This document shows positions 1,119-35,941 of a stretch of 64,000 bases of DNA, one piece after another; position 1 is the stretch's first letter, and every line of letters begins with the position of its first letter. Source of the stretch: Candidatus Nomurabacteria bacterium (lineage in GTDB: Bacteria > Patescibacteriota > Minisyncoccia > Phycocordibacterales > UBA9973); assembly GCA_026395965.1 (NCBI GenBank), contig JAPLXS010000006.1, positions 233,165 through 297,164 of the forward strand, written 5' to 3'. A model generated the notes under the pieces. That model was not told the DNA's origin and searched no databases. It saw only the letters and a list, made by a program, of their open reading frames with translations. Made by a program: the position numbers and the translations under genes.

Positions 1119-1129
1119 TTTAAATAAAA

Positions 1130-1163
1130 TAAAAACCCCTCGATTAATCGAGGGGTTTTTATT
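1130..1163 (+). terminator. Rho-independent terminator after pilB
   Basis: GC stem aaaaacccctcgattaatcgaggggttttt followed by T-run. Confidence 0.8.
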
Positions 1164-1382
1164 TAAGAAAACATAAATCTCTAAACAATCCTTTGAGAGC
1201 ATACACTTACAAAGTAATATAGGATTACAGGATAGAACCAGTAAATTTAACTAAACCAGTACGTCCTATGCACAGATATAGAGCACGGGGCCGATTGCTT
1301 AGAGATTTATATCCTCTTGATTAAAATGCTATAATAAAACCATAATAAATCTCTTTAAAGAGTATATCATAATAAATTTATA

Positions 1383-2375
1383 ATGTCAAGCCCAAACAAA
1401 ACAAATAAAGATGAGGGATTCTTAGACCAAACATTGCGTCCGGGTATTTGGTCGGACTATATAGGTCAAGAAAACATAAAAGCCAACCTTAAAATACTAC
1501 TCACTGCAGCAGAAGAACGCTCCCACCCTGCTGAACATATACTATTTTACGGACCGCCGGGACTTGGAAAGACTACACTCGCTCATTTAATAGCAAAAGA
1601 AACAAATAGACAAATCAAAATAACGTCTGGTCCAGCTATTGAAAAAGTTGGTGACCTTGCTTCTATTTTAACCAACCTATCCCCAGGAGATATTGTCTTT
1701 ATAGATGAAATACATAGACTAAATAAAATGGTAGAGGAAATACTTTATCCAGCTATGGAGTCAGGTGTACTTGATATCATTATAGGCAAGGGTCCATCTG
1801 CTCGTACAATACAACTAGAGCTCCCCCCTTTTACTCTCATAGCAGCTACTACTCGCATAGCACTTCTGTCCTCACCTCTTCGTTCTCGATTCTCTGGTGG
1901 AGTGTTTCGTTTAGAATTTTATACCAATGATGAAATCAAAAAAATAATAAATCGCTCTGCGAAAATACTTGGGGTAGAACTAGAAGATGAAGCTCTAGAC
2001 GAGATAGCTAAGCGTTCACGTTTTACACCTCGTACTGCAAATTATTTTCTAAAGCGTTGCAGAGACTATGCCCAGGTCAATAAAGCTATACTATCAAAAG
2101 ATGTTGTCAAAAAATCATTGGCTTTACTTGAAATAGACGAGCTTGGATTGTCTTCTTCTGATAGACGAATACTAGATATAATAATTTCTAAATTTAATGG
2201 CGGTCCAGTAGGTTTGAAAACTATTGCTGCAGCTACTTCTGAAGAAGAAGCTACTATAGAAGAAGTTGTAGAACCATACTTAATACAGCTTGGATTACTC
2301 GACCGCACAGCAAGAGGAAGAGTTGTAACAAAAAAAGGTTATGAACATTTGGGTTATGAATTTATAGAAAATTAA
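1383..2375 (+). CDS. ruvB: Holliday junction branch migration ATPase RuvB
   Basis: AAA+ Walker [18 protein letters not shown], Walker [11 protein letters not shown], RuvB C-terminal winged helix. Confidence 0.95.
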
Positions 2376-2406
2376 GAATTAAGAATTAATAATTACGAAT
2401 TAGGAG
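2371..2406 (+). repeat. Heptamer array (ATTAAGA ATTAAGA ATTAATA ATTACGA ATTAGGA); the ruvB stop codon lies in the first unit
   Basis: 7-nt periodic GAATTAN/TAATTAN tandem units; same family recurs at 11115, 12471, 12579, 19341, 19884, 20286, 58918. Confidence 0.7.
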
Positions 2407-2442
2407 TTTAATACTATGATATACAAATTTATTTTATAATTA

Positions 2443-2531
2443 AAATAATCTTATCAGAGGGGCTTGTGAGCGCGTCGGCGCGAACACTGAACGAATTTTC
2501 ACCAGAAAATTAGTGTACCCTCTGAGAAGAC
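2443..2531 (+). ncRNA. Candidate structured RNA element, copy 1: outer stem TCAGAGGG/CCCTCTGA enclosing hairpins GCGC-GTCG-GCGC and AATTTTC-ACCA-GAAAATT
   Basis: Near-identical reverse-complement copy at 31768-31858 with compensatory changes in both internal stems; same sense as flanking genes. Confidence 0.5.
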
Positions 2532-2562
2532 TATTTTATATTATAAAATTATTAACTTAATT

Positions 2563-3054
2563 ATGAAAATACTATCAATCGATCCTGGTTTTGAAAGAGT
2601 TGGAATAGCTATCATAGAAAAAACTTTCTTAAAGAAGGATTTATTGGTGTACTCAAATTGTTTTAAAACATCAGCAAAGATTCCATTCCCCCACCGACTT
2701 AGAGACATAGGTCTTGAAATTGAAACAATCATAAAAAAATACAAACCCGAAGCACTGGCAATAGAAAAACTATATTTTACTACAAACCAAAAAACTGCTA
2801 TGGGTGTAGCTGAAGCACGAGGAACTATAATATATGTATGTTCAAAAAATAATCTTACTATTTATGAATACACACCTCCACAAATAAAAGTTGCTGTTAC
2901 GGGATATGGTAAAGCTACAAAGAGTATGGTGATGTCTATGGTTCCAAAACTTATAGATATGAATGCCGATATAAATTCAGACGATGAGATAGATGCTATC
3001 GCTATAGGGCTCACTTGTCTTGCTTGTGAAAATGCAGATTTTGTAAAAAAATAA
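2563..3054 (+). CDS. ruvC: Holliday junction resolvase RuvC
   Basis: N-terminal MKILSIDPGFERVGIAI RNase H-like motif, size 163 aa, adjacent to ruvB. Confidence 0.9.
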   Translation: MKILSIDPGFERVGIAIIEKTFLKKDLLVYSNCFKTSAKIPFPHRLRDIGLEIETIIKKYKPEALAIEKLYFTTNQKTAMGVAEARGTIIYVCSKNNLTIYEYTPPQIKVAVTGYGKATKSMVMSMVPKLIDMNADINSDDEIDAIAIGLTCLACENADFVKK

Positions 3055-3188: not shown

Positions 3189-3386
3189 ATGAGTTATCTT
3201 GATGATGAAGAATTAAAAATAGGTATTGATGGAGAGGAAGAGGAAGACCTTGAAGAAAGTGATTCCGATGAAAATTTCCACGACTTACTTGATAGTGATA
3301 ATGACCTAGAATTAGACGACGCAGATGAGGAGGAAGAAGACCTCTTTGGTGATGAAGTCAAAGGACTAGAAGAACCAGAACTATAA
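3189..3386 (+). CDS. Small highly acidic protein (65 aa, about 50% D/E)
   Basis: ORF followed by strong terminator; composition DDEEL...EEEEDLEESDSDE...DDADEEEED. Confidence 0.4.
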   Translation: MSYLDDEELKIGIDGEEEEDLEESDSDENFHDLLDSDNDLELDDADEEEEDLFGDEVKGLEEPEL

Positions 3387-3391
3387 TAAAT

Positions 3392-3424
3392 AAAACCCCG
3401 ACACTATGTCGGGGTTTTATTTAT
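3392..3424. terminator. Bidirectional rho-independent terminator (acidic ORF on +, tyrS on -)
   Basis: aaaaccccgacactatgtcggggtttta with flanking A/T runs. Confidence 0.8.
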
Positions 3425-4620
3425 ATAATATTTATCTTACAAAATCTTTTTTTGCCGATTCTGTATACTCCTTGTTTTGCTGTATCTGTATACAAAGAAA
3501 CTTTTTCGTCTAGGTCTAGGTTTGTTACTGCGCCGGCCTCCACCAATCTACGAAATTCTCCTTTTGAATCAACTATTTTATTTATTAAAAATATATCTAT
3601 TAAACTCTCATCCTTTTTTACTGATATGTTTTCAACATTATCTGGAATTTCTTTTTTAGAGAAAGTATTTTCCCAGTTTTCTTTTGCTTGTTTTGCTTTT
3701 TTTTCTCCGTGGTATATAGATATCGTTTCTTCTGCTAGTCTCATTTTTAAATCACGGGGATTAACAGAGTTCAAGGAAAGTTCATTTGCCATATCTTCTA
3801 TCTCTGACATTGTTGTATTAGTACAAAGCTCAAATCCTGGCACTATCATTCCGTCTGTCCAGCTCATAATCTTTCCATACATCTCTTCTGGTGTATCTGA
3901 GAAGGCTATCATATTGCCTTCTGTTTTACCCATCTTTTTTCCAGAATTATCTTCGAGAAGTTTTATAGTTATTACAAACTTTTCTTTATTTTTTATTGTC
4001 TTCATTAGATCGCGACCACAAAGCATATTGAATGTCTGATCGTTACCTCCAACCTCTCCATCTACATTCATGGCAACAGAATCGTAGGCTTGCATAAGAG
4101 GATACATGAATTCATTTATGTATATTGGTTTGCCTTCTTTTATTCTTTTATCAAACATATCTCTTTCCAGCATTTGCTGGACTGTCATTTGTGAAGCAAG
4201 TGAAAGAACATCTTCAAAATTCATTTTACTGAGCCATTTTGAGTTAAATTTGAATTGGGCAGCATTTTTACCACTAAAAGACAAAAAAGTACTAGCTTGT
4301 TTTTTGTAATTCTTTAGGTTGGCCATTACTTCTTTTTTTGTAAGTTGTTTTCGTGCTGCACTTTTGTCTGTTGGGTCGCCTATCATTGCGGTAAAGTCAC
4401 CCATCAATAAGATAATCTTGTGTCCAGCTTTTTGGAATTCACTTAGTTTTTTAATTGGGATTGCATGACCAAGATGAAGTGTTGGTCCAGTAGGATCTAT
4501 TCCTAAATATATCGTTAGTTTTTCTCCGCGATTCATTTTACTTAAAATAAAATCCTTGGATGGATAAGCAGCAGAAATACCTCTAGTTAATAGGTCATCG
4601 TTTTTTGTATTGCTATTCAT
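3421..4620 (-). CDS. tyrS: Tyrosyl-tRNA synthetase with C-terminal S4 domain
   Basis: HIGH motif PTGPTLHLGH, KMSKS-like KKMGKTEGN, C-terminal S4-like segment. Confidence 0.9.
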   Translation of the reverse strand: MNSNTKNDDLLTRGISAAYPSKDFILSKMNRGEKLTIYLGIDPTGPTLHLGHAIPIKKLSEFQKAGHKIILLMGDFTAMIGDPTDKSAARKQLTKKEVMANLKNYKKQASTFLSFSGKNAAQFKFNSKWLSKMNFEDVLSLASQMTVQQMLERDMFDKRIKEGKPIYINEFMYPLMQAYDSVAMNVDGEVGGNDQTFNMLCGRDLMKTIKNKEKFVITIKLLEDNSGKKMGKTEGNMIAFSDTPEEMYGKIMSWTDGMIVPGFELCTNTTMSEIEDMANELSLNSVNPRDLKMRLAEETISIYHGEKKAKQAKENWENTFSKKEIPDNVENISVKKDESLIDIFLINKIVDSKGEFRRLVEAGAVTNLDLDEKVSLYTDTAKQGVYRIGKKRFCKINII

Positions 4621-4687: not shown

Positions 4688-7189
4688 ATGAGAAAACATA
4701 TCAAAAAATTCAATATTAAAAACATTATTTTAGTTATTTTAGGGATTGGTCTACTTTTTACTGGTATTCTGATTGCTTGGATTAGTACACTACAATTACC
4801 AGATTTTAAATCTTTTACTGAAAGAAAAATTCAGAGCTCGTCAAAAATATACGATAGAACTGGAACTATTTTGCTCTACGATGTACATGAAAACATAAAA
4901 AGAACTGTTATCCCTTATGAGCAAATGGGTGTTAATATTTTAAACGCAACAGTTGCAATAGAAGATTCTGAATTTTACCAACACAATGGTATTCGTATTT
5001 CATCTATAATCCGTGCGACTATTTGGACAAAATTAACAGGCAAAAAAGTTCAAGGTGGGTCAACTATAACTCAACAACTAATTAAAAATACTCTTTTAAC
5101 ACCTGAGTTGTCTATAACCAGAAAAGTAAAAGAGTGGATGCTGGCTCTTAAGTTGGAAAAAGTTATGACTAAAGACGAAATCCTTGCTCTTTATTTAAAT
5201 GAAGTTCCATACGGAGGAAATATATACGGTATAAAAGAATCTTCTATCGCTTTTTTTGGTAAAAATCCAATAGATTTAACACTAGCTCAGTCCGCATATC
5301 TAGCAGCTATTCCAAATGGTCCAACTTATTATTCTCCATATCGTAAAAATAAAGACAAACTCGATGAACGTAAAAATTTGGTATTAAAAAGAATGCTAGA
5401 TTTAGGTTTTATAAAAGAAGATGAATACAACAAAGCAAAGAATGAATTGGTTACATTTTTACCAGAACAACCTATGCACATAGCGGCACCTCATTTTGTT
5501 TTTTATATTAAAGATTATTTAGAAAATAAATATGGTGTTGATGCTCTTGAGGGCGGGGGTTTAAAAATAATAACTACACTAGATTACAATCTACAGAAAA
5601 AGGCTGAGGAAGTGGCACTGGTTAAAGCAAGAGAAAACGAAAAAAATTGGGATGGTAAAAATGCGGCAGTTGTTGTTATAGACCCAAAAACTGGGCAGAT
5701 ACTTTCTATGGTTGGTTCTAGAGATTATTTTGATAAAACAACTGATGGGAATTTTAATGTGGCAACTGCTTCTAGACAGCCTGGTTCTTCGTTTAAACCT
5801 ATAATATATTCACTTGCTTTTGAAAAAGGTTATACAGAAAAAACAACACTATTTGATGTTAAAACTGAATTTAATAGTTCTTGTGACCCTTCAGCATCAT
5901 CAAATTCAACTACTTGTTATTCACCAGATAACTATGACAATGCTTTCCGTGGTCCCATGACACTAAGAGATGCTCTTGCTCAATCTATAAACGTTATAGC
6001 TGTAAAACTTCTATACCTAGTTGGTGTTTCAGATGCTATTAAACTAGCCCATAATTTAGGTATAAGTACTTTAAAAAATGACCCCAATTTGTATGGTTTA
6101 ACTCTTGTTATTGGAGGAGGAGAAACAACCCTACTTGATATGACTTCTGTTTATGGAGTTTTTGCAAATAATGGTATTAAAAACCCAACTACTGGAATAA
6201 TATCTGTGGAAGATGGATCTGGAAATATACTAGAAAAAACTGAGCTTGCTTCTCAGCAAATAATAAAACCAAATACAACACATATTCTTTCTAGTATATT
6301 GTCTGATGATGCAGCGAGAACTCCTACTTTTGGAGCACATTCAATATTAAACATACCAGGCAGAGAAGTCGCAGTTAAAACAGGTACAACAAACAACAAC
6401 AAGGATGCATGGACTATTGGATATACGCCTTCTGTGGCTGTTGGTGTGTGGGTAGGTAACAATGACAACAAACCAATGAAAAAAGGTGGTGCAGCTCTTG
6501 CTGGGCCCATATGGAATGCTGTAATGTCCGAAGCACTAAAAAACCTACCAGTAGAATCTTTTGAGAAACAAGAACCTATAGACCAAACAATCCCACCTAT
6601 TCTTCGTGGTTTTTGGCAAGGTGGAGAAACTTTCACAATTGATTCTATATCTAATGGATTAGCAACAGAATACACTCCAGAAGAACTAAAAAAAGAAACA
6701 TCTATAACCAATGTTCATACTATTTTATATTGGATAAATAAAAACAATCCTCTTGATGCATTTACATCACCACAAAAAAATGACTCACAGTTTAAAAACT
6801 GGGAGTACGGTATACAAAAATGGTGGAATATAAATAGTTCTAAATACAAAACAGTAACTTCATCTGATATACCAAACACAGTAGACAACATACACACATC
6901 TCAATCAAAACCCACTTTTGAAATAAGTGGAATTGAAAACAAAATATATAAAAAAAATGAGACTATAAATATTTCTGTTTCTTCATCAAACAAAAATCCT
7001 ATTGTAAAATTAGATGTTTTTATAAACAATACATATTTAACATCAATAAAATCGTACCCTCTTTCAACATCATTTATTCCAAACAACATAAACGATATTT
7101 CTACTTTAAATACTATACGTGTTATTGGTGTAGATAATTTTGGAAATAAAGGTGAGCAAAAAATATCTTTTAGCGTAGAAAATAACTAA
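4688..7189 (+). CDS. Class A penicillin-binding protein (glycosyltransferase GT51 + transpeptidase) with C-terminal Ig-like extension
   Basis: N-terminal TM, GT51 motif EDSEFYQHNGI, transpeptidase SGSSFKP (SxxK), SRD, KTGTT. Confidence 0.9.
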   Translation: MRKHIKKFNIKNIILVILGIGLLFTGILIAWISTLQLPDFKSFTERKIQSSSKIYDRTGTILLYDVHENIKRTVIPYEQMGVNILNATVAIEDSEFYQHNGIRISSIIRATIWTKLTGKKVQGGSTITQQLIKNTLLTPELSITRKVKEWMLALKLEKVMTKDEILALYLNEVPYGGNIYGIKESSIAFFGKNPIDLTLAQSAYLAAIPNGPTYYSPYRKNKDKLDERKNLVLKRMLDLGFIKEDEYNKAKNELVTFLPEQPMHIAAPHFVFYIKDYLENKYGVDALEGGGLKIITTLDYNLQKKAEEVALVKARENEKNWDGKNAAVVVIDPKTGQILSMVGSRDYFDKTTDGNFNVATASRQPGSSFKPIIYSLAFEKGYTEKTTLFDVKTEFNSSCDPSASSNSTTCYSPDNYDNAFRGPMTLRDALAQSINVIAVKLLYLVGVSDAIKLAHNLGISTLKNDPNLYGLTLVIGGGETTLLDMTSVYGVFANNGIKNPTTGIISVEDGSGNILEKTELASQQIIKPNTTHILSSILSDDAARTPTFGAHSILNIPGREVAVKTGTTNNNKDAWTIGYTPSVAVGVWVGNNDNKPMKKGGAALAGPIWNAVMSEALKNLPVESFEKQEPIDQTIPPILRGFWQGGETFTIDSISNGLATEYTPEELKKETSITNVHTILYWINKNNPLDAFTSPQKNDSQFKNWEYGIQKWWNINSSKYKTVTSSDIPNTVDNIHTSQSKPTFEISGIENKIYKKNETINISVSSSNKNPIVKLDVFINNTYLTSIKSYPLSTSFIPNNINDISTLNTIRVIGVDNFGNKGEQKISFSVENN

Positions 7190-10192: not shown

Positions 10193-10310
10193 CCCGTTAG
10201 AGATAGTCCCCCAAAGGTGGGACGTATCATATTGATTATTATTAATTATTTATACAGTTAGTAATTATACAAACCACCATTAGAATATAACGAACATATC
10301 TCTAACGGGA
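10192..10310 (-). other. Inverted-repeat leader element, site 1: TCCCGTTAGAGATA ... TATCTCTAACGGGA, 3' arm abutting the dnaA ATG
   Basis: 14-bp perfect IR separated by about 90 bp; same architecture at 18395-18672 and 42583-42703 with covarying outer positions. Confidence 0.6.
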
Positions 10311-10383
10311 TCCATAAGGACCATTATACATTGTTTTTTAATTACCCAACAATAAAATATCTTAATTAACATGTTGATATCAT

Positions 10384-10442
10384 GTGGATATGTTTTGCTT
10401 TCTATGTTGCAATATTCGACAATATAGTATATATTATCCAAT
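10384..10442. promoter_or_regulatory. DnaA-box-like 9-mers upstream of dnaA / rpmH
   Basis: tgtggatat 10384-10392 and ttatccaat 10434-10442. Confidence 0.4.
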
Positions 10443-11114: not shown

Positions 11115-11240
11115 TTAATAATTAGGAATTAAGAATTACTAGTACCCAATAGGTCATTCTACTGAATGAGGCGTTTTGCTAAATCTGGAATTAAAAACCC
11201 CAATTAACCAAAATTCTTAATTCCTAATTTTTAATTATTT
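11115..11240. repeat. Inverted pair of heptamer arrays (11115-11140 forward, 11211-11240 reverse-complement) flanking a 70 bp core
   Basis: ttaataattaggaattaagaattact ... aaattcttaattcctaatttttaattattt. Confidence 0.6.
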
Positions 11241-12009: not shown

Positions 12010-12477
12010 ATGTATAAAGATAAAATAAAGGAGGCAGTTGAAAGTATATTTAAACATACAGCTTGTACTATTACAAAGTGTGATTTTTCAGAAGAGAGTG
12101 GAATGCTTTGGTGTATGATAGAAACACCAGATTCAAACTTTATGATAGGTAGAGATGGGGAAACATTACGCTCACTCAACCATATAATTCAAAAGATTGT
12201 AGAAAAAGATACAATAAAAACAGAAGAAAAAGGACCAAGTATATTTATCGATATAAACGGTTATCAAAAAAAGCGATTTGAGAATTTAAAGAACATAGCT
12301 CACATGATGGCAGAGAGAGCCCGTTATTTTAAAAGCAATATAGAGATAGATCCAATGCCCGCATTTGAAAGAAGAATAGTACACATGTTCTTGGAAGGCG
12401 CCAAAGATATCAAAACAGAGTCAGAGGGCTACGGACCTACGAGAAGAGTTGTTATAAAATACATAGAGAGTAATTAA
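12010..12477 (+). CDS. jag: Jag/KhpB RNA-binding protein (KH + R3H domains)
   Basis: R3H motif RRIVHMFLEG...GYGPTRRVVI; downstream of yidC. Confidence 0.8.
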   Translation: MYKDKIKEAVESIFKHTACTITKCDFSEESGMLWCMIETPDSNFMIGRDGETLRSLNHIIQKIVEKDTIKTEEKGPSIFIDINGYQKKRFENLKNIAHMMAERARYFKSNIEIDPMPAFERRIVHMFLEGAKDIKTESEGYGPTRRVVIKYIESN

Positions 12478-12634
12478 GAATTAATAATTACGAATTAGGA
12501 ATAAAAAATACCATGACAGTGTCATGGTATTTTTTATCTAGTATTATTTTTTTAATTTTTAATTATTGTTCTCTCCCCTATTCCAATTCCTAATTCCTAA
12601 TTCCTAATTCGTAATTATTAATTCTTAATTATTT
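12471..12634. repeat. Heptamer array (12471-12502), terminator hairpin (12503-12536), then inverted 8-unit heptamer array (12579-12634)
   Basis: taattaagaattaataattacgaattaggaata | aaaaaataccatgacagtgtcatggtatttttt | tattccaattcctaattcctaattcctaattcgtaattattaattcttaattattt; stop codons of jag and of the 503 aa gene lie inside the arrays. Confidence 0.7.
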
Positions 12635-14136
12635 AACCCCAACCCCCACAATGTTGAATCTTTTTTATTTGTAAAGAATAATGTTTTTTCTTGTTTGTCT
12701 AAAAATAAATTAGTTCCGTCTACTGGAGTTTCTGAAGTTGAATTAGCTATTGTTTCAGAATCTCCAGTTGTAGAATTTATTTTTATAAAAAAATCATCAA
12801 AAGAAACCAATCCTTGATACCAAGAGTCAGGATACTGATTTCCATTAATAACATTTGGAACACTACAGTAAATGGTTATATTGTCTATACTCCATACACA
12901 TTTGTCTGACAAACCATATCTATCTAGTTCTTTTGTAGTGTGTTTTTTAATATCAAAAATTGATAGTTTGGGGCCACTAGATGTAGATGTGCTAAACAAA
13001 ACAAGAGAACCATTGTGGTTTACTAAAGTGGTGAGCCCAGGTACTCCCCCAAAAACCTTTGTAGTAGTTTTAGTTGTTGTATTTAAAACAAAGATAGTGC
13101 CATTTGCAGTATAAGATGGTTTTGTTGTTAGATATATTTTTTGATTGTTATCCCATTGTGATAGCCATTCTGTAAAAGGAGAATTAAAAACTATATCTTT
13201 TTTTGTGTTTCCAAATGTTCCGACGACACCAGATGCACCGTTGTTGTTTTCTGTTATATAGAAAAATTTAGTTTTATCGATAGAAGTGCTAAAATCAGAA
13301 ATATTTTGAGGTAAAAATTCTCCAGACGGAGCACCAAGCGAAGCCATAAAACTATTTATAGATTTATCTTCTGAGAGATATCTGTAAACAAAAGTATTAC
13401 CTGTATTATCAAAAAAAGTTTCATAAATACTTGGAATTGTAGAATTTGAAATCTTCTCTTTGTTTTTTGTATCTAAAAACATTTTATATATGTGGCCGTT
13501 CATCCTCTCTACGTATCTTATAGAAGGAGCTATCTCTGTAGTTCTTATTGGTGTTGTTGCCCCACCTTGTGCTATTTTTGTAAAATATGGAGCTGTAAAA
13601 GTATCTATTTTTCCTGTAACTCCCAAGTTGTTTAATTTTTGGAAAGATTTTATTGCATCTACTGTTTTTTTATCTAAAACCCCAGTTGTTGCTAGTTGTG
13701 GTTTTAGAGAAAGTGTAGTATTTAGAAATTTTTGAATTTCAATTCTACCCGCTTTTGTATCAGGAGATATTACTACCCTAGCTGGCTCAGGAGCCTGTAC
13801 TACTTGCGTATTTGGATTAACTGCTATTGGTCTTATATCGTCCAAAAAGGTGGCACCAGCAACAGAAAAGTCTGTTATTTGGTAGAACTTATTGACTGGT
13901 GTTGTAGATGTTCCTTGGTCTTGATTTTGAACTTCAGTTGATGTTTCATTGTTTGTAATAGGTGTTGTTGCAACCTGGCTACCATTACCAAAAGGGTTAA
14001 AACTTTGATACCAAGATGATTGGGTGTTTGTAGTACTAACACTAGGATTCTTGCTAGACCAAAAGTAAAAACCAAGGATAATTATCCCTACTATTATAAA
14101 TGTTGTTATAAAAATGATTTTTGTTTTTTGTGGCAT
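12625..14136 (-). CDS. Membrane-anchored secreted protein with peptidoglycan-binding domain and beta-rich C-terminal region
   Basis: N-terminal TM, T/S/Q-rich linker, PG_binding_1-like LATTGVLDKKTVDAIKSFQKLNNLGVTGKIDTFTAPYF. Confidence 0.55.
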   Translation of the reverse strand: MPQKTKIIFITTFIIVGIIILGFYFWSSKNPSVSTTNTQSSWYQSFNPFGNGSQVATTPITNNETSTEVQNQDQGTSTTPVNKFYQITDFSVAGATFLDDIRPIAVNPNTQVVQAPEPARVVISPDTKAGRIEIQKFLNTTLSLKPQLATTGVLDKKTVDAIKSFQKLNNLGVTGKIDTFTAPYFTKIAQGGATTPIRTTEIAPSIRYVERMNGHIYKMFLDTKNKEKISNSTIPSIYETFFDNTGNTFVYRYLSEDKSINSFMASLGAPSGEFLPQNISDFSTSIDKTKFFYITENNNGASGVVGTFGNTKKDIVFNSPFTEWLSQWDNNQKIYLTTKPSYTANGTIFVLNTTTKTTTKVFGGVPGLTTLVNHNGSLVLFSTSTSSGPKLSIFDIKKHTTKELDRYGLSDKCVWSIDNITIYCSVPNVINGNQYPDSWYQGLVSFDDFFIKINSTTGDSETIANSTSETPVDGTNLFLDKQEKTLFFTNKKDSTLWGLGLNN

Positions 14137-14147: not shown

Positions 14148-15392
14148 TTAATGACCAGCATTAGGTCCAGTTGACCAATGCCAATTTTCTTTGGGTAAAT
14201 TCTTGAATCCATAGTTTATCGCATTTTTTTGTAGCCAAGTAAAACATTCTTTTGTGCTGGCTACTTTTTCAAATTTAGGATTTTGATTATCCCAATTAAT
14301 CAATTTTCCGTTACATTTTAAATCAACCGCAAGACCTTGCTCATGGTTTGATGTTCCTGGTTTTGCTGTTTGGGGTTTACATGAACTAGCGGGAACTGTT
14401 AACTTTGGGGCTGGGCAGTTTTTATTTCTTAGTGCTGTTTGCTCATCAAGTGACCTATATCCCCCTCCAGATAAAGTTATACCACCTAAATTAAAAGCAT
14501 CAGCAATCATAAGTTGAAGTTTTGGAGCGTAAGCAGAACAAAATCTAAAATTAGCTGTTTTTGTTTGTACCATTCTTGTTCCACCCGGGCAGTTATCAAA
14601 ACTATTTTTAGTTGGAGCTAAAGAACCCTCGTCTGATAGTATTGGTATTTCTTCTTCTTCTATTCCTGCAGTAACCGGATCGATTTTTACCCCTCCCCCT
14701 CCTAGTAGGTCTGGGTTGATAGTGTTTAATAAAGCATAAGAACCTAGTGCTATAAGTAGTCCAAGTATTGAGTTTTTTATTCTACCTTTTGCTTCTGTTT
14801 TACCAAAAATTGATTCATTACCCATATATTGAACACCACCTATAACAATCATTATAACAGCGAGCACAGCACAGAGACCTATGGCGATATTAAATATTGA
14901 ATTAAAATAAGTACCAATATTATCTGGTGCTGTTTTCATTCCTCCTATAGGAGCGAGGAGATTATAAACTTTTTCAGAAAATGTACCTGAAGAAGTTGTT
15001 CCTGGTGTTATGGTAACAACTTGTGTCTCTGTGGGGATAACAACAGCAGGAGTAACTTGTTCTGCGTGAGTTTGACTATCTAGTATTTTATAGAAGCATC
15101 CTTTTTTTAGTTCTAGTATTTTTTCTTGTGCAGTTCCCCCGTAAATTTCTGAATTAACCATTACTTTTTTGTCGTTATTGCAAGTCTGAAAAGCAGCTAT
15201 ATTTTTTGACACATTATGAGTATCAGAATAAGGAGATGTGTAGGGCTCTGTAGCTCCTTTCAATGGTATAGTAAAATAATAAACAGTGTCTGTTATTGCG
15301 CTAACTGTTTTTATTAATGAAAAAAATATAAATAAATATATAAATATATAAAATAATTTTTTATTTTTTGTTTGAGATTTATTTTTTTTCAT
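14148..15392 (-). CDS. Membrane protein with paired hydrophobic helices and C-terminal M15 (VanY-like, LAS family) zinc peptidase domain; putative secretion-system-associated cell-wall hydrolase
   Basis: N-terminal signal/TM, two hydrophobic helices IFNIAIGLCAVLAVIMIVIGG / ILGLLIALGSYALL, Gly-rich linker, M15 motif SNHEQGLAVDL. Confidence 0.6.
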   Translation of the reverse strand: MKKNKSQTKNKKLFYIFIYLFIFFSLIKTVSAITDTVYYFTIPLKGATEPYTSPYSDTHNVSKNIAAFQTCNNDKKVMVNSEIYGGTAQEKILELKKGCFYKILDSQTHAEQVTPAVVIPTETQVVTITPGTTSSGTFSEKVYNLLAPIGGMKTAPDNIGTYFNSIFNIAIGLCAVLAVIMIVIGGVQYMGNESIFGKTEAKGRIKNSILGLLIALGSYALLNTINPDLLGGGGVKIDPVTAGIEEEEIPILSDEGSLAPTKNSFDNCPGGTRMVQTKTANFRFCSAYAPKLQLMIADAFNLGGITLSGGGYRSLDEQTALRNKNCPAPKLTVPASSCKPQTAKPGTSNHEQGLAVDLKCNGKLINWDNQNPKFEKVASTKECFTWLQKNAINYGFKNLPKENWHWSTGPNAGH

Positions 15393-15393
15393 A

Positions 15394-16425
15394 TTATAGA
15401 TTTATTAATAATTCATTACTTATTGTTTGAAACAATTCATTTATATTTTCAACTTTGAAATTAATTGTTGCATACCCTCCACGCGAAGACGGTCTAACTG
15501 TGAGCTCTGTTTTTCTAGAAGGAGTATCAACATCTTCACCATTTATTTTCCAGTTGTATGAAAAATCAGATTTATTGCCTTTTAGGGACATAAAATACGG
15601 TTCAGCAACAAGAGTCATTTCATCTTCTAGCATAAAAGTTTCTTTATCTAGTGCATTGTTGTAAAGAACACCTTCTGTTGGAGATTTTTTATAAAAAACT
15701 ATTTTTGGTTTGTATGCTTGTACTTCTGTAGTATTTTCAGCACTGTAATTACCACTAACAGCAGAAGCAACAACTGTTATTTCATTTTTCTGGTCAAACA
15801 TATCACTTTTAAAAAGATACGAATTTTTGTTGTATCCAGAAACTGATTGGTCTACTTCTCCATTTTTTTTCCAAGTATAAGAAATACTTCCATTGCCAGA
15901 TTTTATACTAGATGTATTTGGGATAGCTACAACACGTATAAAACTACCAACAGTTGGTAATATTTTTCCTTTATAAAATGGTGGAGCATATCCATCAACA
16001 GACTCCCACATTGTTTCTATTTCTGATGGAACTATTACAATTTTTTTGTTTATGGTTGTGACAGAACCAACTGGTTGAATATTTATATTTATAACACTAG
16101 CTGTATCTGGGCCAAGTGCTTTAAAAGAGTAGCTAAGTTTTCCTATTCCAGCGAGAACTGTAACACCCCCAGTTTGCCATGTTATTATTGCTTTGTTTAA
16201 GTCAGTAGCATAACTAGAAATATTTATAGTTACATCTTCGTATGGCTGAGGATTACTAGGGATTGTTTCTACGCTGATTTCCCCTTCTTGTACTTGAATC
16301 TGTGGTTCAGCAAAAGAAAAATAAGGCATACTTATTATTCCTATAATAAAAATACCAAAGATAAAAAATTTTATTTTCATGAATTTCACTAGATATATTA
16401 TATAATAATCTTGTAAATCAAACAA
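15394..16425 (-). CDS. Secreted hypothetical protein (signal peptide, beta-rich)
   Basis: N-terminal MKIKFFIFGIFIIGIISMPYFSFA; no recognisable catalytic motif. Confidence 0.5.
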   Translation of the reverse strand: MFDLQDYYIIYLVKFMKIKFFIFGIFIIGIISMPYFSFAEPQIQVQEGEISVETIPSNPQPYEDVTINISSYATDLNKAIITWQTGGVTVLAGIGKLSYSFKALGPDTASVININIQPVGSVTTINKKIVIVPSEIETMWESVDGYAPPFYKGKILPTVGSFIRVVAIPNTSSIKSGNGSISYTWKKNGEVDQSVSGYNKNSYLFKSDMFDQKNEITVVASAVSGNYSAENTTEVQAYKPKIVFYKKSPTEGVLYNNALDKETFMLEDEMTLVAEPYFMSLKGNKSDFSYNWKINGEDVDTPSRKTELTVRPSSRGGYATINFKVENINELFQTISNELLINL

Positions 16426-16565
16426 GAAAATTAAAGATATTGATACATATTTTGTGTAATTAATAAAATTATTTCCTCTTTACCCCAAAGGGGCACTACG
16501 AGATAAATAATTTTATTAATTACACAAAATAATACCTATAATAAATAGACGTTGGACGTCTATTT

Positions 16566-18395
16566 TTATGAATTTGTTGAAAGTAAGTCTTTCTTGGCTT
16601 TTTGAATAGCAAGTATTTGTGATGGATCTGAAGTAATGATCTGGTCCTCTGTATAAGAAGCTATTGTTTTAATAGCAACGTGTTTTAGCCCAGCAAAGAA
16701 TATACCCTCGCCTACATTTGCTTCAAGTAAGAGGTATTTTTCTTCATCTGTGAGGTTGAAAGTCTTTTGTAATACATCTATGGTTGCTGGGGATTGTTTC
16801 AAGAGTAGTTGAATAGATGAGTTTGTAACAATAGGTATACCATAAGGACTTTTCATAAAATCTCCTACGTCCTGAGTGATAGTAGCAAGACCTAGATAGT
16901 ATTTACGTCCTCTTTTTGCAATAGAATACAAGAAAGAAGCAGTATCTTCTGATTTCATCATCCACCAAGCCTCATCAACTACGAGCAATCTCTTTTTGAT
17001 ATTTTTACGGATAGAATTCCAAATATAGTGAGTGATTATATACATTGCGACAGGCTTAAGCTCATCCTCCATGTCTCTAACAGAAAAAACAATAAATTTT
17101 CTATTTATATCTACGTTTGAAGGCTGGTTTAAGAATGAAGCCCAAGAACCATGAGTATATTTTACCAATCTCTGCATAAGAGACTCACTTCCCTCCATAC
17201 CAGAAAGAACTACTTCAAAGTCTGAGAGCATTGGAGGTTCAATATTCATGAAATCTGAATTGGTTGTTATGTCTTTCAAGGCATAAGTTTCAGTAATAGC
17301 AGAGTCAACAAGTGAATCTTCTTCTGGTGTAAGTCCACCAAGCATTATTCTAAATAGACCAACAAGATTTATGGTATTTGCACGGAGTACATCAGCACCA
17401 GTTTCATCTCCTGTAGGTATTGGTAAGTCAAAAGGGTTTATGTGGTGGTCTGAAGAAAGAGCAATGTTGAAATATCTACCTCCCACTGCTTCTGCTAGGT
17501 ATTCGTATTCGCGTTCAGGGTCTATAACAATAACTTCTGTATCAAACATCAAAGTACGAATAATCTCTAGTTTTGTGGCATAAGATTTACCTGCACCAGC
17601 TGTAGCAAAGGTAATAGAGTTGTAGTTTGGTAAAGAAAATCTATCAAAAAGTATAAGACTAGAGTTATGACGGTTTACCCCATATAGTATTCCCCTATCT
17701 TCTGTTAGGTCAAAGGATACAAATGGGAAAATACTTGAAAGAGGTTCAGTATTTAGTTTTTGGTGTATACCTAAAATATCTGTACCTAATGGTATGACAC
17801 TTTTGAAGCCCTCATTTTGTTGAAATAATGCAGGTTTAAGATAAATAAGCTTTGAATCTAGAAGAGATTTTATCTCGTTCTCAATTTTAAATAAATCATT
17901 GTCATTCTCGGCATATACAGTGATATAAAGCCCGACATCAAACATTTTCTCTTGAGCTTGCATTAGATTGTTTCTCAAATCCTCTAGGTCTCTGTATGCT
18001 GTATCTAGCATCGGGTCACGAACGAGACCTTTTGATTCACGAATAGAAATCTGACTTTGAACCTCAGCTACTTTTTTCTGGAAAGATCTCATTATTTCTG
18101 CTGTATCTATAGGATGAATAAAAATAGAAATATCATAAACCTTGTCCAGGTTTATGATTGGAGAAAACCAGTTGTCACTGAGGTATCTTGGGTATGATAT
18201 TACGAAAAATGTTCTAGCTATTTTATCTCCAAGATTTAAAGATTTTGGTGTTATTTGAAGAGCAGAAGGAGCAATAATATCTTGTAGCTCAAGAGTTGCA
18301 GCTTTGTAGATTTCACTAGGCAAAACAGGCATAACCATACTTCGGTTATTTTTAAGATCGTCCCCTTTTCCAAATAATGATGAAAATATTGACAT
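16566..18395 (-). CDS. VirB4/PrgJ-type type IV secretion ATPase, central + ATPase portion (apparent C-terminal fragment of a split gene)
   Basis: VirB4 mid-region ARTFFVISYPRYL, Walker A ATAGAGKSYATK, Walker B RLLVVDEAWWMM. Confidence 0.8.
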   Translation of the reverse strand: MSIFSSLFGKGDDLKNNRSMVMPVLPSEIYKAATLELQDIIAPSALQITPKSLNLGDKIARTFFVISYPRYLSDNWFSPIINLDKVYDISIFIHPIDTAEIMRSFQKKVAEVQSQISIRESKGLVRDPMLDTAYRDLEDLRNNLMQAQEKMFDVGLYITVYAENDNDLFKIENEIKSLLDSKLIYLKPALFQQNEGFKSVIPLGTDILGIHQKLNTEPLSSIFPFVSFDLTEDRGILYGVNRHNSSLILFDRFSLPNYNSITFATAGAGKSYATKLEIIRTLMFDTEVIVIDPEREYEYLAEAVGGRYFNIALSSDHHINPFDLPIPTGDETGADVLRANTINLVGLFRIMLGGLTPEEDSLVDSAITETYALKDITTNSDFMNIEPPMLSDFEVVLSGMEGSESLMQRLVKYTHGSWASFLNQPSNVDINRKFIVFSVRDMEDELKPVAMYIITHYIWNSIRKNIKKRLLVVDEAWWMMKSEDTASFLYSIAKRGRKYYLGLATITQDVGDFMKSPYGIPIVTNSSIQLLLKQSPATIDVLQKTFNLTDEEKYLLLEANVGEGIFFAGLKHVAIKTIASYTEDQIITSDPSQILAIQKAKKDLLSTNS

Positions 18396-18672
18396 CCCGT
18401 TAGAGATAGGAAGCGCCTAATCTGTTTTTAAGATAACGCTTACCCATTCCCGATTTTAAATATAATTCTCTCGACCGAGCTTTTTTCTCGCTCTTACATG
18501 CTTCATAATAAATAATTTCAAACGGACCTCTTCCTTTTGTATAAGTAGACAAACCATTGTTGTGTTGCAGAAGGCGTTTCCGTAAATCTTTTGTACTTCC
18601 TGTGTATATATTACCATCTTTTTTACTTTTTAATATATAAGTGTAATAAAACATATATAATCTCTAACGGGA
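18395..18672 (-). other. Inverted-repeat leader element, site 2 (TCCCGTTAGAGAT ... ATCTCTAACGGGA) with GIY-YIG gene nested between the arms
   Basis: 13-bp perfect IR; GIY-YIG ATG 5 nt inside the upstream arm, its TAA stop inside the downstream arm, which directly abuts the VirB4 ATPase ORF ATG. Confidence 0.6.
18400..18654 (-). CDS. Small GIY-YIG nuclease family protein (UPF0213/YhbQ-like)
   Basis: FYYTYILKSKKDGNIYTGSTKDLRKRLLQHNNG...YTKGRGPFEIIYYE, 84 aa. Confidence 0.8.
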   Translation of the reverse strand: MFYYTYILKSKKDGNIYTGSTKDLRKRLLQHNNGLSTYTKGRGPFEIIYYEACKSEKKARSRELYLKSGMGKRYLKNRLGASYL

Positions 18673-18683
18673 CCAGTATAATA

Positions 18684-19337
18684 TTATTGTAGTTTCATTC
18701 CTTGGCTAGTGTCGCCAGGGTTAAATGTTTTATAAAAAAGCTCGACTACTTGGTCTGTTTTAAGTTGAGAAGTTCTGATGCCTACTCTACCAAGACCACT
18801 GATAATAACACCTACTCTCTGGTCGAGCTGTGTACGCTTCTCCTCAAATGAAGCCATATCCATTGCCTTTTTTGTATCTTCTATTTGTTTTTTTGGAGCA
18901 CCGCTTCCCATAAAACTATCCATCATTTTATTGCTAGACTTTATAACATTTGCACTGTAAGGTACAACAATAAAAAAAGTTTTTGTCATTATATTTACTT
19001 CGTCAGTAAATGATTTTATGAAGTCTATGTATTCTTTGGTTTGTATTTTTAAAAGAGGCTCTGTTTGCTCTTTTAATCTTTCTTCTAGGGTCATTAGGTA
19101 TGGGCGTATGTCCAATCTGCGTGATTGCATACATATTTGAGTTGGAAAATCTAAACCGTTGAGAAAATTTTGGAACTCACTTATGATAGCTGTTTGTTCG
19201 TCTGCTGATTTAAGAGATAAGTTTAGAGAAGATGCTAGTAGTATAGAACGAAGACCACCATCCTTTAGTATGATGATGCCATTTCTTACTTCTTTAATTG
19301 GTACAAACTCCTGAGAGCTTTTTGCATCTATTGCCAT
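18684..19337 (-). CDS. VirB4/PrgJ N-terminal domain protein (apparent N-terminal fragment of split VirB4)
   Basis: Gram-positive VirB4 N-terminal pattern QEFVPI..NGIIILKDG...LNLSL...EQTAIISEFQNFLNGLD..TQI. Confidence 0.55.
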   Translation of the reverse strand: MAIDAKSSQEFVPIKEVRNGIIILKDGGLRSILLASSLNLSLKSADEQTAIISEFQNFLNGLDFPTQICMQSRRLDIRPYLMTLEERLKEQTEPLLKIQTKEYIDFIKSFTDEVNIMTKTFFIVVPYSANVIKSSNKMMDSFMGSGAPKKQIEDTKKAMDMASFEEKRTQLDQRVGVIISGLGRVGIRTSQLKTDQVVELFYKTFNPGDTSQGMKLQ

Positions 19338-19340
19338 ATA

Positions 19341-19446
19341 AAATAATTACGAATTAATAATTACGAATTTATAACTAATAACATTGTACCATATTACAAA
19401 TAATTAAGAATTATTAACCTTACTCCCTAATTCCTAATTATTAATT
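19341..19446. repeat. Heptamer arrays (19341-19370 and 19401-19419 forward; 19425-19446 reverse) in the 5' leader of the VirB4-N ORF
   Basis: aaataattacgaattaataattacgaattt ... taattaagaattattaacc ... ccctaattcctaattattaattt. Confidence 0.6.
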
Positions 19447-19455
19447 TATAATTAT

Positions 19456-19875
19456 TTACTCCTTCTCTCCTCTATTACTATCCTGCACATCTAAACTCCA
19501 CGAAAGGTCTTTTAGTTTATTTGATGTAACCATAGGAACAACAGATACTAGTTGTGGAGTAGAAGATTCTTCTTTTTCTTTAATTTCTGGTTTTACAAGT
19601 CTTTGTTTCCATATATATAATTTACCAGAAATAAAATAATTAAAGGCAGCTTCAAGGTAATAGATAAATGGCTTTTCATTTATCTTGTAAAATACCAAAA
19701 GAAATGACAATACACCTATGGGTATTATTAAAAATATACCAATCCACAAAGGAAATAATTTATAAACAACAAAGGCCATACCAGCCCCACCAACAATATA
19801 TATAAATTGGCGAAAAGTAAAAGGGCCAAATAATTTGTCCTCGACGTCAATAAATTGTGGTACTTTGAATTGCAT
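19456..19875 (-). CDS. PrgI/VirB3-like small two-TM type IV secretion protein
   Basis: 139 aa, pattern DVEDKLFGPFTFRQFIYIVGGAGMAFVVY + second TM, located upstream of VirB4 as in PrgI-PrgJ. Confidence 0.55.
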   Translation of the reverse strand: MQFKVPQFIDVEDKLFGPFTFRQFIYIVGGAGMAFVVYKLFPLWIGIFLIIPIGVLSFLLVFYKINEKPFIYYLEAAFNYFISGKLYIWKQRLVKPEIKEKEESSTPQLVSVVPMVTSNKLKDLSWSLDVQDSNRGEKE

Positions 19876-19883: not shown

Positions 19884-19915
19884 TAATTACGAATTAGGAA
19901 TTAATAATTACGAAT
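19884..19915 (+). repeat. Heptamer array (forward) left of the four-helix-bundle gene
   Basis: taattacgaattaggaattaataattacgaat. Confidence 0.6.
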
Positions 19916-19921
19916 GAACGA

Positions 19922-20272
19922 TTAAGATCTGGATGTTTTTATAATCGAACCAAGTATTTTTAATAATTCTTCACATTCACACATAAGTGTACCAGATTGT
20001 TCCTTGTTTAGAAAACCACTATCTGATAAAAGCTGTAACCAATAAAGTGTTTCCCTTGCCTCTTTGTATGAAATACTCATCTTTGAGATGAAATCATTTT
20101 TTGATTGTGCCCCTATTGCCTCCTCTATATTTGCCCCAATAGATGTTCCGGATCGAATTAATTGTTTTGAAAGAATAAATTCTTTTTTGTCTTTAGTTAA
20201 ATCCTGATATATTTTTATTATATTAAGACTGAAGGCATAACTCTTACTTCTTACGATATTGTCCGACTTCAT
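19922..20272 (-). CDS. Four-helix-bundle protein (TIGR02436-like; family commonly found in 23S rRNA intervening sequences)
   Basis: QLIRSGTSIGANIEEA...KMSISYKEARETLYWLQLL signature, 116 aa. Confidence 0.75.
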   Translation of the reverse strand: MKSDNIVRSKSYAFSLNIIKIYQDLTKDKKEFILSKQLIRSGTSIGANIEEAIGAQSKNDFISKMSISYKEARETLYWLQLLSDSGFLNKEQSGTLMCECEELLKILGSIIKTSRS

Positions 20273-20285
20273 TTTTTTTGATTTA

Positions 20286-20318
20286 AATTCTTAATTCCTA
20301 ATTATTAATTCTTAATTT
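20286..20318 (-). repeat. Heptamer array (reverse orientation) right of the four-helix-bundle gene
   Basis: aattcttaattcctaattattaattcttaatttt, inverted relative to 19884-19915. Confidence 0.6.
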
Positions 20319-20319
20319 T

Positions 20320-21441
20320 CTAAAACTCTTCCCTATAAGGGTCATGTGATTTTGGTGAAGAAACAGTATTTGAAGGTAAAGGAGACGGAGTAGATATTTT
20401 GGGAATTGAATAGTCTGAAACAGTATGATCACTCATAGTTATACTTTTTAATTTGTCCCCCATAGATATGGCTTGTGTATTTACAATAGGAGACTTGGGA
20501 ATAGGAATACTAGGTTTTACTTCCCATGCATCTTTTAGCTCGTCTTTTATTTTAACAGGAGTTTCTATTTTTGTAGTTATATGTTCTATGTAATCAAGCC
20601 TATCTTCTTTTTTTATTATACTAGCACTTTGTGCTACGCTTTCTGTTGGTTTTTTAATTTCTATAACTTCTTCTATTTTGGGTATTGTTGTTTGTACTGC
20701 TGGGAGCTCTATACTTGATTTTGCATAAGGAGGAACAGGAACCTTGTCCTCGCTCTCTACTTTCATATCACTACCGTTTATTTTTTCTTGCTCATTCTTT
20801 TTCATAACCTCTCTAATGTTAATGAAAATATTTTCATTAACATCTTTTATTAGGTCTGAAATTTCTTCTTTTGGTAGTGGTATTTTAGAAATTATTTCAC
20901 CCTCGTATTTATCTGAATGTATAACATTTTGTATTACTTTTACTGTTATATCTTCTATAATACCCATCTGCTCGATGTTTAATTTGTATTTCTTTGATAT
21001 CTCGTAAAGCTTATTTTTCCAGTCAGAGCCTGCTATCGCCTCCTGAATATCTTTTGGCATAGTAATAAAACGAGGGTCTAAAATCAAAGGTTTTTTTTCA
21101 AAAACTGTTTTGGCTGTTCTTTCTAGTTTTTTCTTTAACTCCTCGGCAATTTTTTTGAAAATTAATCTATCGAGTTCACCGAGTAGGATGTTTGTATCAT
21201 CATTAGTTATTCTCATTCTGGATTGAATTTCTTTTTGATATTCTTCTGGTTTTAAAATTCCGCATAGAAGTAATTCAGTTTCTGTTGAAAGATCATCAAG
21301 TTGCTCGGGGCTGTATTTTTTATTCATCTCTAGAATAACCAATTTCCAATTTACACTATCAATAGCCTCCCGACTTTCTTTTGAAAGGAGTGCTCTTGCT
21401 TCTTCTATTTGAATTTTAAGTAAATCAACTTTGGTATCCAT
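20320..21441 (-). CDS. Hypothetical coiled-coil protein with Pro-rich C-terminus (secretion-locus component)
   Basis: 373 aa, charged helical repeats, no enzymatic motif. Confidence 0.5.
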   Translation of the reverse strand: MDTKVDLLKIQIEEARALLSKESREAIDSVNWKLVILEMNKKYSPEQLDDLSTETELLLCGILKPEEYQKEIQSRMRITNDDTNILLGELDRLIFKKIAEELKKKLERTAKTVFEKKPLILDPRFITMPKDIQEAIAGSDWKNKLYEISKKYKLNIEQMGIIEDITVKVIQNVIHSDKYEGEIISKIPLPKEEISDLIKDVNENIFINIREVMKKNEQEKINGSDMKVESEDKVPVPPYAKSSIELPAVQTTIPKIEEVIEIKKPTESVAQSASIIKKEDRLDYIEHITTKIETPVKIKDELKDAWEVKPSIPIPKSPIVNTQAISMGDKLKSITMSDHTVSDYSIPKISTPSPLPSNTVSSPKSHDPYREEF

Positions 21442-26819: not shown

Positions 26820-26842
26820 ATATTTACTTAAATAATTATTAT

Positions 26843-35938: not shown

Positions 35939-35941
35939 ACT

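Follow-up and report, generated by a model that had tools for sequence, protein, structure and literature searches.

Within a 64,000-nt stretch of contig JAPLXS010000006.1 from a Candidatus Nomurabacteria bacterium (the window), we characterised an intergenic element, named E1 here, that is present in three copies and folds into a long hairpin with a branched tip. E1 belongs to a known kind of sequence, the bacterial interspersed palindromic repeats. Within that kind we favour, with moderate confidence, a structure-constrained, recombining family of the repetitive extragenic palindrome (REP) or miniature inverted-repeat transposable element (MITE) type in terminator-like positions. Four traits set it apart: conservation is highest in the branched tip, every copy has outer arms of its own, the stems covary very clearly, and the host belongs to the candidate phyla radiation (CPR).

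Three copies of E1 in the window share a branched fold

A first-pass annotation of the window had reported compensatory changes in two internal hairpins of an element of about 80 nt, and the hairpin sequences it gave for copies 1 and 2 are exact. Copy 1 and copy 2, the latter read on the reverse strand, are 85% identical over 101 nt, and almost all of their differences are paired changes in these hairpins. In copy 1 they read GCGC-GTCG-GCGC (hairpin 1) and AATTTTC-ACCA-GAAAATT (hairpin 2), and in copy 2 GGCT-GTCG-AGCC and AATTTCT-ACCA-AGAAATT. The identical flanks described for the two copies (AAAATAATCTTATCAGAGG...CCTCTGAGAAGA) were confirmed. Copy 3 keeps both hairpins, GGGC-GGCG-GCCC and AATTTTC-AGCA-GAAAATT, with the loops as originally given. 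All three copies adopt a common fold in which a long closing stem (P1) leads into a three-way junction bearing two short hairpins (P2 and P3), with z-scores for stability against shuffled sequences of -5.4 (copy 1), -4.9 (copy 2) and -4.3 (copy 3). The "sense" strand of E1 is our designation.

The ends of E1, AAAATAATCTTATCAGAGG and CCTCTGAGAAGACTATTTT, form a 19-nt terminal inverted repeat with two mismatches. Pairing at 17 of the 19 positions, together with one junction pair, gives a closing stem of about 18 bp in place of the 8 bp first proposed, and it runs on into copy-specific flanks; the original extent of copy 1 (2443-2531) was too narrow both for the conserved part and for the whole hairpin (Table 1). 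Copy 3 lies head-to-head with copy 2, 37 nt apart by the coordinates of the covariance model (CM) matches. It had been thought to lack an outer stem; a covarying one is present, formed by AAAUAGUCUUU/GGAGAGCUAUUU plus AAAAUAC/GUAUUUU, the latter a compensatory substitute for CAGAGGG/CCCUCUG. The recurrence of E1 is not due to chance, because the 19-nt arm motif, expected 0.14 times, occurs three times and once more with three mismatches.

E1 is a lineage-specific family

More than 40 further copies of E1 were collected, all from Paceibacterota metagenome-assembled genomes (MAGs) and metagenomes (L numbers are our handles for the genomes and contigs). A genome scan with the central 17-mer, one genome per species, returned true copies only in the Paceibacterota MAGs L004, L007, L011, L019, L024 and L026; the remaining matches were chance occurrences within coding DNA. 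A metagenome scan anchored on the 5' junction added about 27 copies, and a CM built from 24 sequences then detected diverged copies adjoining known ones. The stems covary across the collected copies.

No Rfam family matches E1, whether ribozyme (hammerhead, twister, pistol and hatchet among them), riboswitch, Y RNA, 6S or SRP. Searching the whole window against Rfam 15 at the gathering threshold returned four tRNAs only, and permissive scans of copies 1-3, one subfamily B copy and one four-way copy gave chance matches (E > 1) or sub-threshold generic long hairpins, these being miRNA precursors at no more than 44 bits versus gathering scores of at least 85. In IMG/VR the 17-mer had no match and a gapped pattern had one chance match, rejected by the CM; blastn of E1 against phages found nothing. 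Neither Rfam nor the searchable literature yielded a description of E1, and about 140 kb of sequence from related genomes contains no copy. E1 is a previously undescribed, lineage-specific family of Nomurabacteria-type (CPR) Paceibacteria.

Three subfamilies were distinguished. Subfamily A is canonical; B, from lake metagenomes, differs in its inner arms; and C is diverged and usually the opposite-orientation partner of an A copy. Such A/C doublets are found in the window (copies 2 and 3) and in L047/L073, L070, L062 and L088. Variants with an extra hairpin between P3 and P1 occur in L069, L081 and L011, and in L011 P2 is also expanded by about 100 nt of inserted hairpins. E1, a repeat of 100-150 bp, measures 96-124 nt without its outer arms; the window has three copies in 64 kb, and positive genomes have one to three per 8-20 kb locus. 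Several independent assemblies (Logan, JGI and GTDB MAGs) start or end inside a copy (Table 1), and E1 evidently breaks short-read assemblies.

One strand of E1 is maintained in folded form

Covariation was measured on a MAFFT alignment of 24 sequences, not fitted to structure, against a hand-drawn structure. Standard pairs fill 94% of the alignment cells, 21 of the 36 pairs are changed on both sides, and 106 cells carry a double change. None of 500 shuffles reached any of the covariation measures, and when the pairing partners were slid by 1-3 columns only 43-57% paired. RNAalifold reported compensatory changes in 19 of 31 pairs. Each of the three helices has undergone compensatory substitution, as have the copy-specific outer arms where orthologous sites are compared; variation is greatest among the middle pairs of P2 and at the two pairs that close the P3 loop. 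The alignment contains no covariation between the P2 loop (GNCG) and the P3 loop (ANNA).

The most conserved part of E1 is the three-way-junction tip with its two short hairpins (~55 nt). The junction strands (AGGGGCUUGUGAG, GAACAC-UGA and GUR-CCC) and both loops are near-constant, a constancy that is partly forced by the search patterns; however, all matches anchored on the 17-mer carry GGGGCTTGTGAG and most of those anchored at the 5' junction carry the 17-mer. The strand joining P3 to P1 reads GUA in some copies and GUG in many. Irregularities are conserved as well: P1 keeps an A·G mismatch together with a bulged G, and P2 keeps a tandem G·A. Beneath the tip are conserved inner arms of about 19 bp, whose motif AAATAG(C)TCTT is kept in subfamilies A and C, not B. 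Outer arms of 10-26 bp follow, unique to each copy, A-rich on the 5' side and T-rich on the 3' side. Because each copy adds such arms, P1 totals 25-45 bp, and it is often perfect.

G·U pairs are enriched on the sense strand: 41 versus 12 on the antisense strand in the core, 92 versus 33 in the core plus 30-nt flanks, 24 versus 3 in the inner arms and 53 versus 19 in the outer arms. In the outer arms of copies that are antisense to both neighbouring genes the count is 20 versus 5, and the more stable fold is the sense one in 29-30 of 32 copies. Thus, the folded form of one particular strand is maintained in situ. E1 also teaches a caution: compensatory changes prove that a folded single strand matters, not that the strand is RNA or that a small-RNA gene is present. 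The structural half of the first-pass proposal is strongly supported and extended by covariation in more than 40 copies and by the G·U preference for one strand, and its small-RNA gene half is not supported (see below). A second option it had offered, a structured RNA-level repeat, comes close to our result, with the proviso that compensatory change does not identify the strand as RNA.

Genomic setting of E1

E1 is confined to intergenic DNA, where its copies face either way: about 12 are sense to both neighbours and about 10 antisense to both, with some between convergent and some between divergent genes. Copies 1 and 2 are sense to their flanking operons, as each copy had been said to be; copy 3 is antisense, and the family as a whole is split about 50/50. 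E1 often begins 10-25 nt past a stop codon, and in L068 two copies almost fill the spacing between convergent genes. E1 has housekeeping genes as neighbours, with no relation among the genes downstream, and its copies do not form a cassette array; clustering of 141 open reading frames (ORFs) within 2.5 kb of E1 gave no recurrent neighbour beyond synteny. The sense side shows no promoter enrichment (best sigma-70-like match, mean 7.8 of 12 versus 8.2 on the antisense side), and promoter and terminator consensus scans at both window loci yielded nothing informative. GC skew in the window tracks gene orientation and so gives no reading of the replication strand.

A filter-free model search of the window returned many simple hairpins at gene ends, with perfect stems of 17-25 bp in the order A-tract, GC stem, short loop, GC stem, T-tract. 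In build they resemble bidirectional terminators. The arms of E1 are constructed alike, and on both strands CUAUUU(U) comes after the inner stem. Table 1 lists perfect hairpins of great length (17-30 bp), most of the A-tract/GC stem/T-tract type and most in gene-end spacers. They are probable bidirectional intrinsic terminators of a kind typical for this genome, and two of them abut tRNA genes.

Turnover of E1 at two orthologous spacers

The ruvB-ruvC spacer carries an A copy on the + strand both in the window and in L019 (RuvB 93% identical), where P1 has a compensatory G>A / C>T change. At the orthologous site the E1 core is 97% identical, versus 57-60% for the flanking spacer and 72-83% for adjacent coding DNA. 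The same spacer contains an inverted E1 with an extra hairpin in L069, a copy of another subfamily in L081, and no E1 in L083/L084, where it measures 18 nt, or in L085.

The pcrA-ksgA spacer, occupied in the window by an A(-)/C(+) pair, has collinear flanks in L053 (KsgA 78% identical), with the A core inverted and half of the C copy replaced by a 42-nt palindrome (E2). L088 has a C copy, another hairpin and then a chimeric A copy that combines the orthologous P2 with a C-type P3. The spacer holds only an A copy in L072, only E2 in L089, and a Y1 transposase resembling REP-associated tyrosine transposases (RAYT), together with its REPs, in L087. Every genome examined has a repeat unit in the slot after pcrA (E1, E2 or a RAYT/REP unit), and both spacers are polymorphic, being occupied, empty or taken by other elements in related genomes. 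The empty sites in L083 and L089 are too diverged from occupied ones, and their flanks too AT-rich, for a target duplication to be called.

E2 (TAGAGGTNCAACCTC-N12-GAGGTTGNACCTC) is absent from the window; in L053 it is the 5' half of the copy-3 homologue that it replaces. Conserved in two genomes, a third hairpin element (~95 nt; AAATCTTATCAATAAAAAAGTC...GACATTTTTTATTGAAAAGATTT) separates the C copy of E1 from the A copy.

How E1 persists and what it may do

On the reading we favour, a recombining palindromic repeat family, copies of E1 would persist and be reshuffled mainly by DNA recombination, probably through inversion between E1's own inverted arms and gene conversion between copies. For the host, E1 is most likely a hairpin that ends or insulates transcripts running in either direction, because its arms share the terminator hairpin architecture and it often starts shortly past a stop codon; it probably serves transcript-end formation in either direction, or at least leaves it undisturbed. 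For the conserved tip, the likeliest role is that of a recognition module, on which a putative trans-acting factor would act in RNA or in extruded single-stranded DNA.

E1 has much in common with ERIC, Correia (NEMIS), RUP and BOX: it is likewise ~100-150 bp in length, its long terminal inverted repeats pair into an extended stem, it occupies intergenic positions near gene ends in both orientations, and it shows presence/absence polymorphism between relatives. Those elements are MITE-like and co-transcribed, form RNA hairpins and likely affect transcript ends and stability, as E1 probably does too. Unlike them, E1 has termini less conserved than its tip, outer arms unique to each copy, systematically covarying stems, a conserved junction and a CPR host, and for E1 neither a parent insertion sequence (IS) nor a target duplication was found. 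About 0.8 Mb of collected sequence shows no longer element or transposase bounded by E1 arms; a loose arm-motif search for such larger elements was too noisy to use.

Several observations weigh against the reading we favour. Conservation of the tip above the termini is the opposite of a classical MITE. A constant junction, with a P2 that can be swapped or expanded (as in L011) and with added hairpins, is what one typically sees in a functional RNA core. The G·U bias goes with the strand of E1 itself, also where this runs opposite to both flanking genes, which a hairpin acting only within neighbouring mRNAs does not predict; such a hairpin does not fit the data. U-tracts past the outermost arm are inconsistent among copies, and a consensus terminator scan flags no E1, since it allows only loops of 3-8 nt and is unsuited to branched ones. 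Finally, neither a mobilising enzyme nor a target-site duplication nor any recent clean insertion came to light, so mobility is read only from presence/absence, inversion and replacement.

CPR/Patescibacteria genomes are tiny and thought to be poor in repetitive DNA. A well-defined, strongly covarying multi-copy element offers a new handle on their evolution, through hot-spot intergenic slots, inversion and gene conversion, and E1 accounts for assembly breaks in CPR MAGs. With its unusually good covariation and conserved junction, E1 presents a clean case of a candidate new motif, in structured RNA or in single-stranded DNA.

Alternative explanations

We regard as tentative, and rather unlikely, the idea that the 55-nt three-way junction is a new active module, either a self-cleaving or self-processing RNA or the folded-DNA site of an enzyme, and that E1 represents a new class of structured mobile elements homing to terminator-type hairpin tips in CPR genomes. 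It would fit the constant junction with swappable or expandable peripheral stems, the strand-specific G·U bias that is independent of genes, the nesting and replacement of hairpin tips, and the copy-specific outer arms. Insertion at a hairpin tip would be harmless because the host stem simply lengthens.

A low but appreciable probability attaches to E1 being the folded single-stranded DNA substrate of a strand-specific enzyme, such as a RAYT/IS200-type HUH/Y1 transposase or a tyrosine recombinase, which would copy it into intergenic hairpin slots; its compensatory changes would then preserve a DNA fold. The G·U (G·T) bias tracks E1's strand irrespective of gene direction, outer arms included, and the conserved A·G mismatch and bulged G recall attC and IS608 ends, in which extrahelical bases determine the strand that is chosen. 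E1 also shares with attC, IS200/IS605 ends and CTX attP the preservation of stem structure over sequence, variable tip structure and a strand-specific fold. It differs from attC in having no R''/R' core sites (RYYYAAC/GTTRRRY), no cassette arrays and no linked integrase or TnpA, and in its tip, which is variable in attC and conserved in E1.

E1 also resembles REPs, bacterial interspersed mosaic elements (BIMEs) and REP doublets forming hairpins (REPINs), to whose general kind it belongs on the reading we favour. These too are multicopy, imperfect intergenic palindromes in either orientation and in terminator-like positions, with stem irregularities that make the strands non-equivalent and with frequent inverted doublets. 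The likeness of the A/C doublets to REPINs also speaks for a DNA substrate, as does the fact that other small palindromes nest into or replace E1. RAYT-like Y1 transposases (PF01797) are abundant in the clade: a protein search returned 7723 homologues at E <= 1e-15, with named top matches from Paceibacterota, Nomurabacteria, Minisyncoccia and Patescibacteria, and the L087 gene sits exactly in the pcrA-ksgA slot. However, RAYT genes are flanked by short, classical REP hairpins of their own (CATGTCCAGGC..GCCTGGACATG; ATATCCAGGAC..GTCCTGGATAT; TACGGAGGC..GCCTCCGTAG). At all four RAYT loci examined (L087, L004, L092 and L094-L103) the flanking REPs are of the TCCAGG..CCTGGA or CGGAGGC..GCCTCCGTAG type, and none has an adjacent E1 by the CM, so a link between E1 and RAYT was rejected. 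One RAYT gene, detected by local tblastn in L004, lies 2.6 kb from an E1 copy and again has different short REPs in its flanks, and L092, a Nomurabacteria contig with a RAYT gene, has no E1 in 20 kb. E1 is also longer than REPs and REPINs (100-150 versus 20-40 nt), is branched with a three-way tip, and has ATAG instead of GTAG at the hairpin foot.

The search for an enzyme also speaks against a DNA substrate. Among ~46 Pfam-scanned ORFs of the window (drawn from ORFs of at least 100 aa) there is no transposase, reverse transcriptase or Y1/HUH gene, the only recombinase being a XerC/D-like tyrosine recombinase (Table 1). Nor does E1 show an orientation bias relative to gene direction, taken as a proxy for replication direction, or a target-site signature.

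It seems quite unlikely that E1 is a functional RNA module at each locus (for instance a ribozyme that cleaves itself, a signal for processing or stability, or an RNA that binds a protein) whose copies reflect function and not selfish spread. The near-invariant junction amid freely covarying stems, variable or expandable peripheral stems around a fixed core, conservation of the core above adjacent coding DNA, G·U pairs favouring the sense strand, and tandem G·A motifs in P2 and P1 would all suit such a module. Set against these are the lack of any Rfam match to the A, B and four-way variants, all ribozyme models included, the antisense placement of half of the copies relative to both neighbours without promoter signal, the absence of E1 from close relatives, and flips of orientation at orthologous sites. 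A hammerhead ribozyme was rejected: E1 has CUUGUGA instead of CUGANGA 5' of P2, GAAC and then an extra CACUGA after P2, and G at position 17 in many copies. A C/D-box reading was rejected on sequence.

That E1 copies are ordinary intrinsic terminators related by local duplication, with no mobility or special function of the tip, is improbable. Arm composition and perfect A/T complementarity match the bidirectional terminator-like hairpins of the window, E1 is found right after stop codons and between convergent genes, and outer-arm pairing is maintained in situ. The native hairpins, in contrast, have simple loops of 3-5 nt and unrelated sequences, whereas E1 copies share near-identical cores, the 55-nt branched tip and the inner arms across unrelated loci and different species. 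A terminator has no need of such a highly conserved branched tip, copies are also found in divergent promoter regions, inverted doublets occur, and the terminator scan, within its loop limits, was negative.

A cis-regulatory leader (riboswitch or attenuator) of the downstream gene, or a trans-acting small-RNA gene as the first-pass annotation had suggested, is very improbable and largely refuted by orientation and context: copies 1 and 2, both in sense, do precede ruvC and ksgA by 25-70 nt, and three-way junctions are common among riboswitch aptamers, but downstream genes are unrelated, about half of the copies are antisense or between convergent genes in an effectively random orientation, no promoter signal is enriched on the sense side, the closing stem of 25-45 bp runs into copy-specific DNA and is incompatible with a switching P1, E1 is absent from related genomes or varies in presence at the same genes, and orthologous sites show inversion, chimeras and replacement.

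Table 1. Positions of E1 copies, other repeats and selected genes. Window positions count from its first letter; other positions refer to the sequence named.
Feature	Sequence	Position	Strand	Remarks
E1 copy 1 (subfamily A), whole hairpin	window	2431-2550	+	RNAfold of 2414-2573; includes AT-rich copy-specific outer arms
E1 copy 1, location	window	spacer of ruvB (1383-2375) and ruvC (2563-3054)		Pfam annotation of flanking genes
E1 copy 1, conserved element	window	2442-2537	+	closing-stem arms 2442-2461 and 2518-2537; CM match 110 bits
E1 copy 1, closing-stem mismatches	window	2448/2531; 2453/2526		A·C; A·G
E1 copy 1, three-way-junction core	window	2462-2517	+	fold and covariation
E1 copy 1, junction strands	window	2462-2464; 2487-2490; 2515-2517		J12 GCU; J23 CUGA; J31 GUA
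E1 copy 1, P2	window	2465-2486		UGU/ACA, tandem G·A loop, GCGC/GCGC, loop GUCG
E1 copy 1, P3	window	2491-2514		AC/GU, G·A mismatch, AAUUUUC/GAAAAUU, loop ACCA
E1 copy 2 (subfamily A), whole hairpin	window	31751-31867	-	CM match 111.7 bits
E1 copy 2, conserved element	window	31762-31857	-	P2 31813-31834, P3 31785-31808
E1 copy 2, location	window	spacer of pcrA (32066-34015, -) and ksgA/rsmA (30816-31691, -)		Pfam
E1 copy 3 (diverged subfamily C), whole hairpin	window	31884-32010	+	CM match 49.8 bits, E = 3.7e-12
E1 copy 3, conserved element	window	31900-31995	+	P2 31922-31944, P3 31947-31971
Assembly break points in E1	window	2482		start of L001
Assembly break points in E1	L026; L058; L076; L090	3578; 10292; 1; 1
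Very long perfect hairpins	window	1125-1166, 3381-3429, 12500-12537, 35935-35979, 37565-37608, 42022-42082, 45741-45786, 49029-49072, 50128-50197, 52581-52626, 55166-55204, 59130-59200, 63709-63753
E2 palindrome	L053	5490-5531, 5826-5867
E2 palindrome	L089; L007	9941-9980; 2448-2485
~95-nt hairpin element	L088; L053	9668-9762; about 5690-5790
RAYT-like Y1 transposase genes	L087; L004; L092	9343-10011; 5893-6513; 10001-10636		PF01797
RAYT-like Y1 transposase genes	L094-L103			PF01797
XerC/D-like tyrosine recombinase	window	43302-44240
Heptamer arrays	window	2365-2411, 11119-11158, 12464-12521, 12574-12637, 19341-19383, 19411-19459, 19884-19941, 20275-20325, 58917-58979
Heptamer arrays	L019; L081; L069	1110-1145; 6188-6212; 293-308

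Other features of the window

A second repeat family consists of AT-rich arrays with a 7-nt period (AATTAAG AATTAAT AATTACG AATTAGG), which occupy many intergenic spacers in both orientations. The array directly upstream of E1 copy 1 is also kept in the orthologous spacer of relatives. Another two bracket a gene on the minus strand (19922-20272) for a 116-aa protein of the 23S_rRNA_IVP family (PF05635), a four-helix-bundle family that includes the Avd proteins of diversity-generating retroelements.

Two related 57-nt sequences (56356-56412 and 56896-56952), each with a 35-bp palindrome (CTAACTCACTTTACGCTATAGCGTAAAGTGAGTTAG versus CTAACCCGCATTACGCTATAGCGTAATGCGGGTTA) whose arms covary, bracket a minus-strand ORF (56421-56897) encoding a Cas2-like/PaaX_M-domain gene product. 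Between tRNA-Gly (50181-50254) and tRNA-Pro (50684-50755), a 76-nt unit is present in two full tandem copies that are 80% identical (50358-50509); its first 26 nt recur at 50513-50538, and a perfect 30-bp hairpin follows at 50628-50692.

Three copies of a 118-nt unit lie inside a CARDB-domain ORF (24693-26819), within a repeat region spanning 25283-26909, and the ORF next to it (26843-29815) holds a fourth copy of a 61-nt unit (26849-26909). Both repeats belong to the coding sequence of a surface protein and have no relation to E1. A type-IV-secretion-like gene cluster, with a T4SS pilin/VanY fusion, a TraG P-loop ATPase and PrgI, extends over 14148-19875. The segment 7487-12477 contains dnaN and dnaA on the minus strand and then, divergently on the plus strand, rpmH, rnpA, yidD, yidC and an R3H protein gene. 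This is the classical gene order of an origin region, with oriC likely around 10200-10440; GC skew, which follows gene orientation, does not add confirmation.

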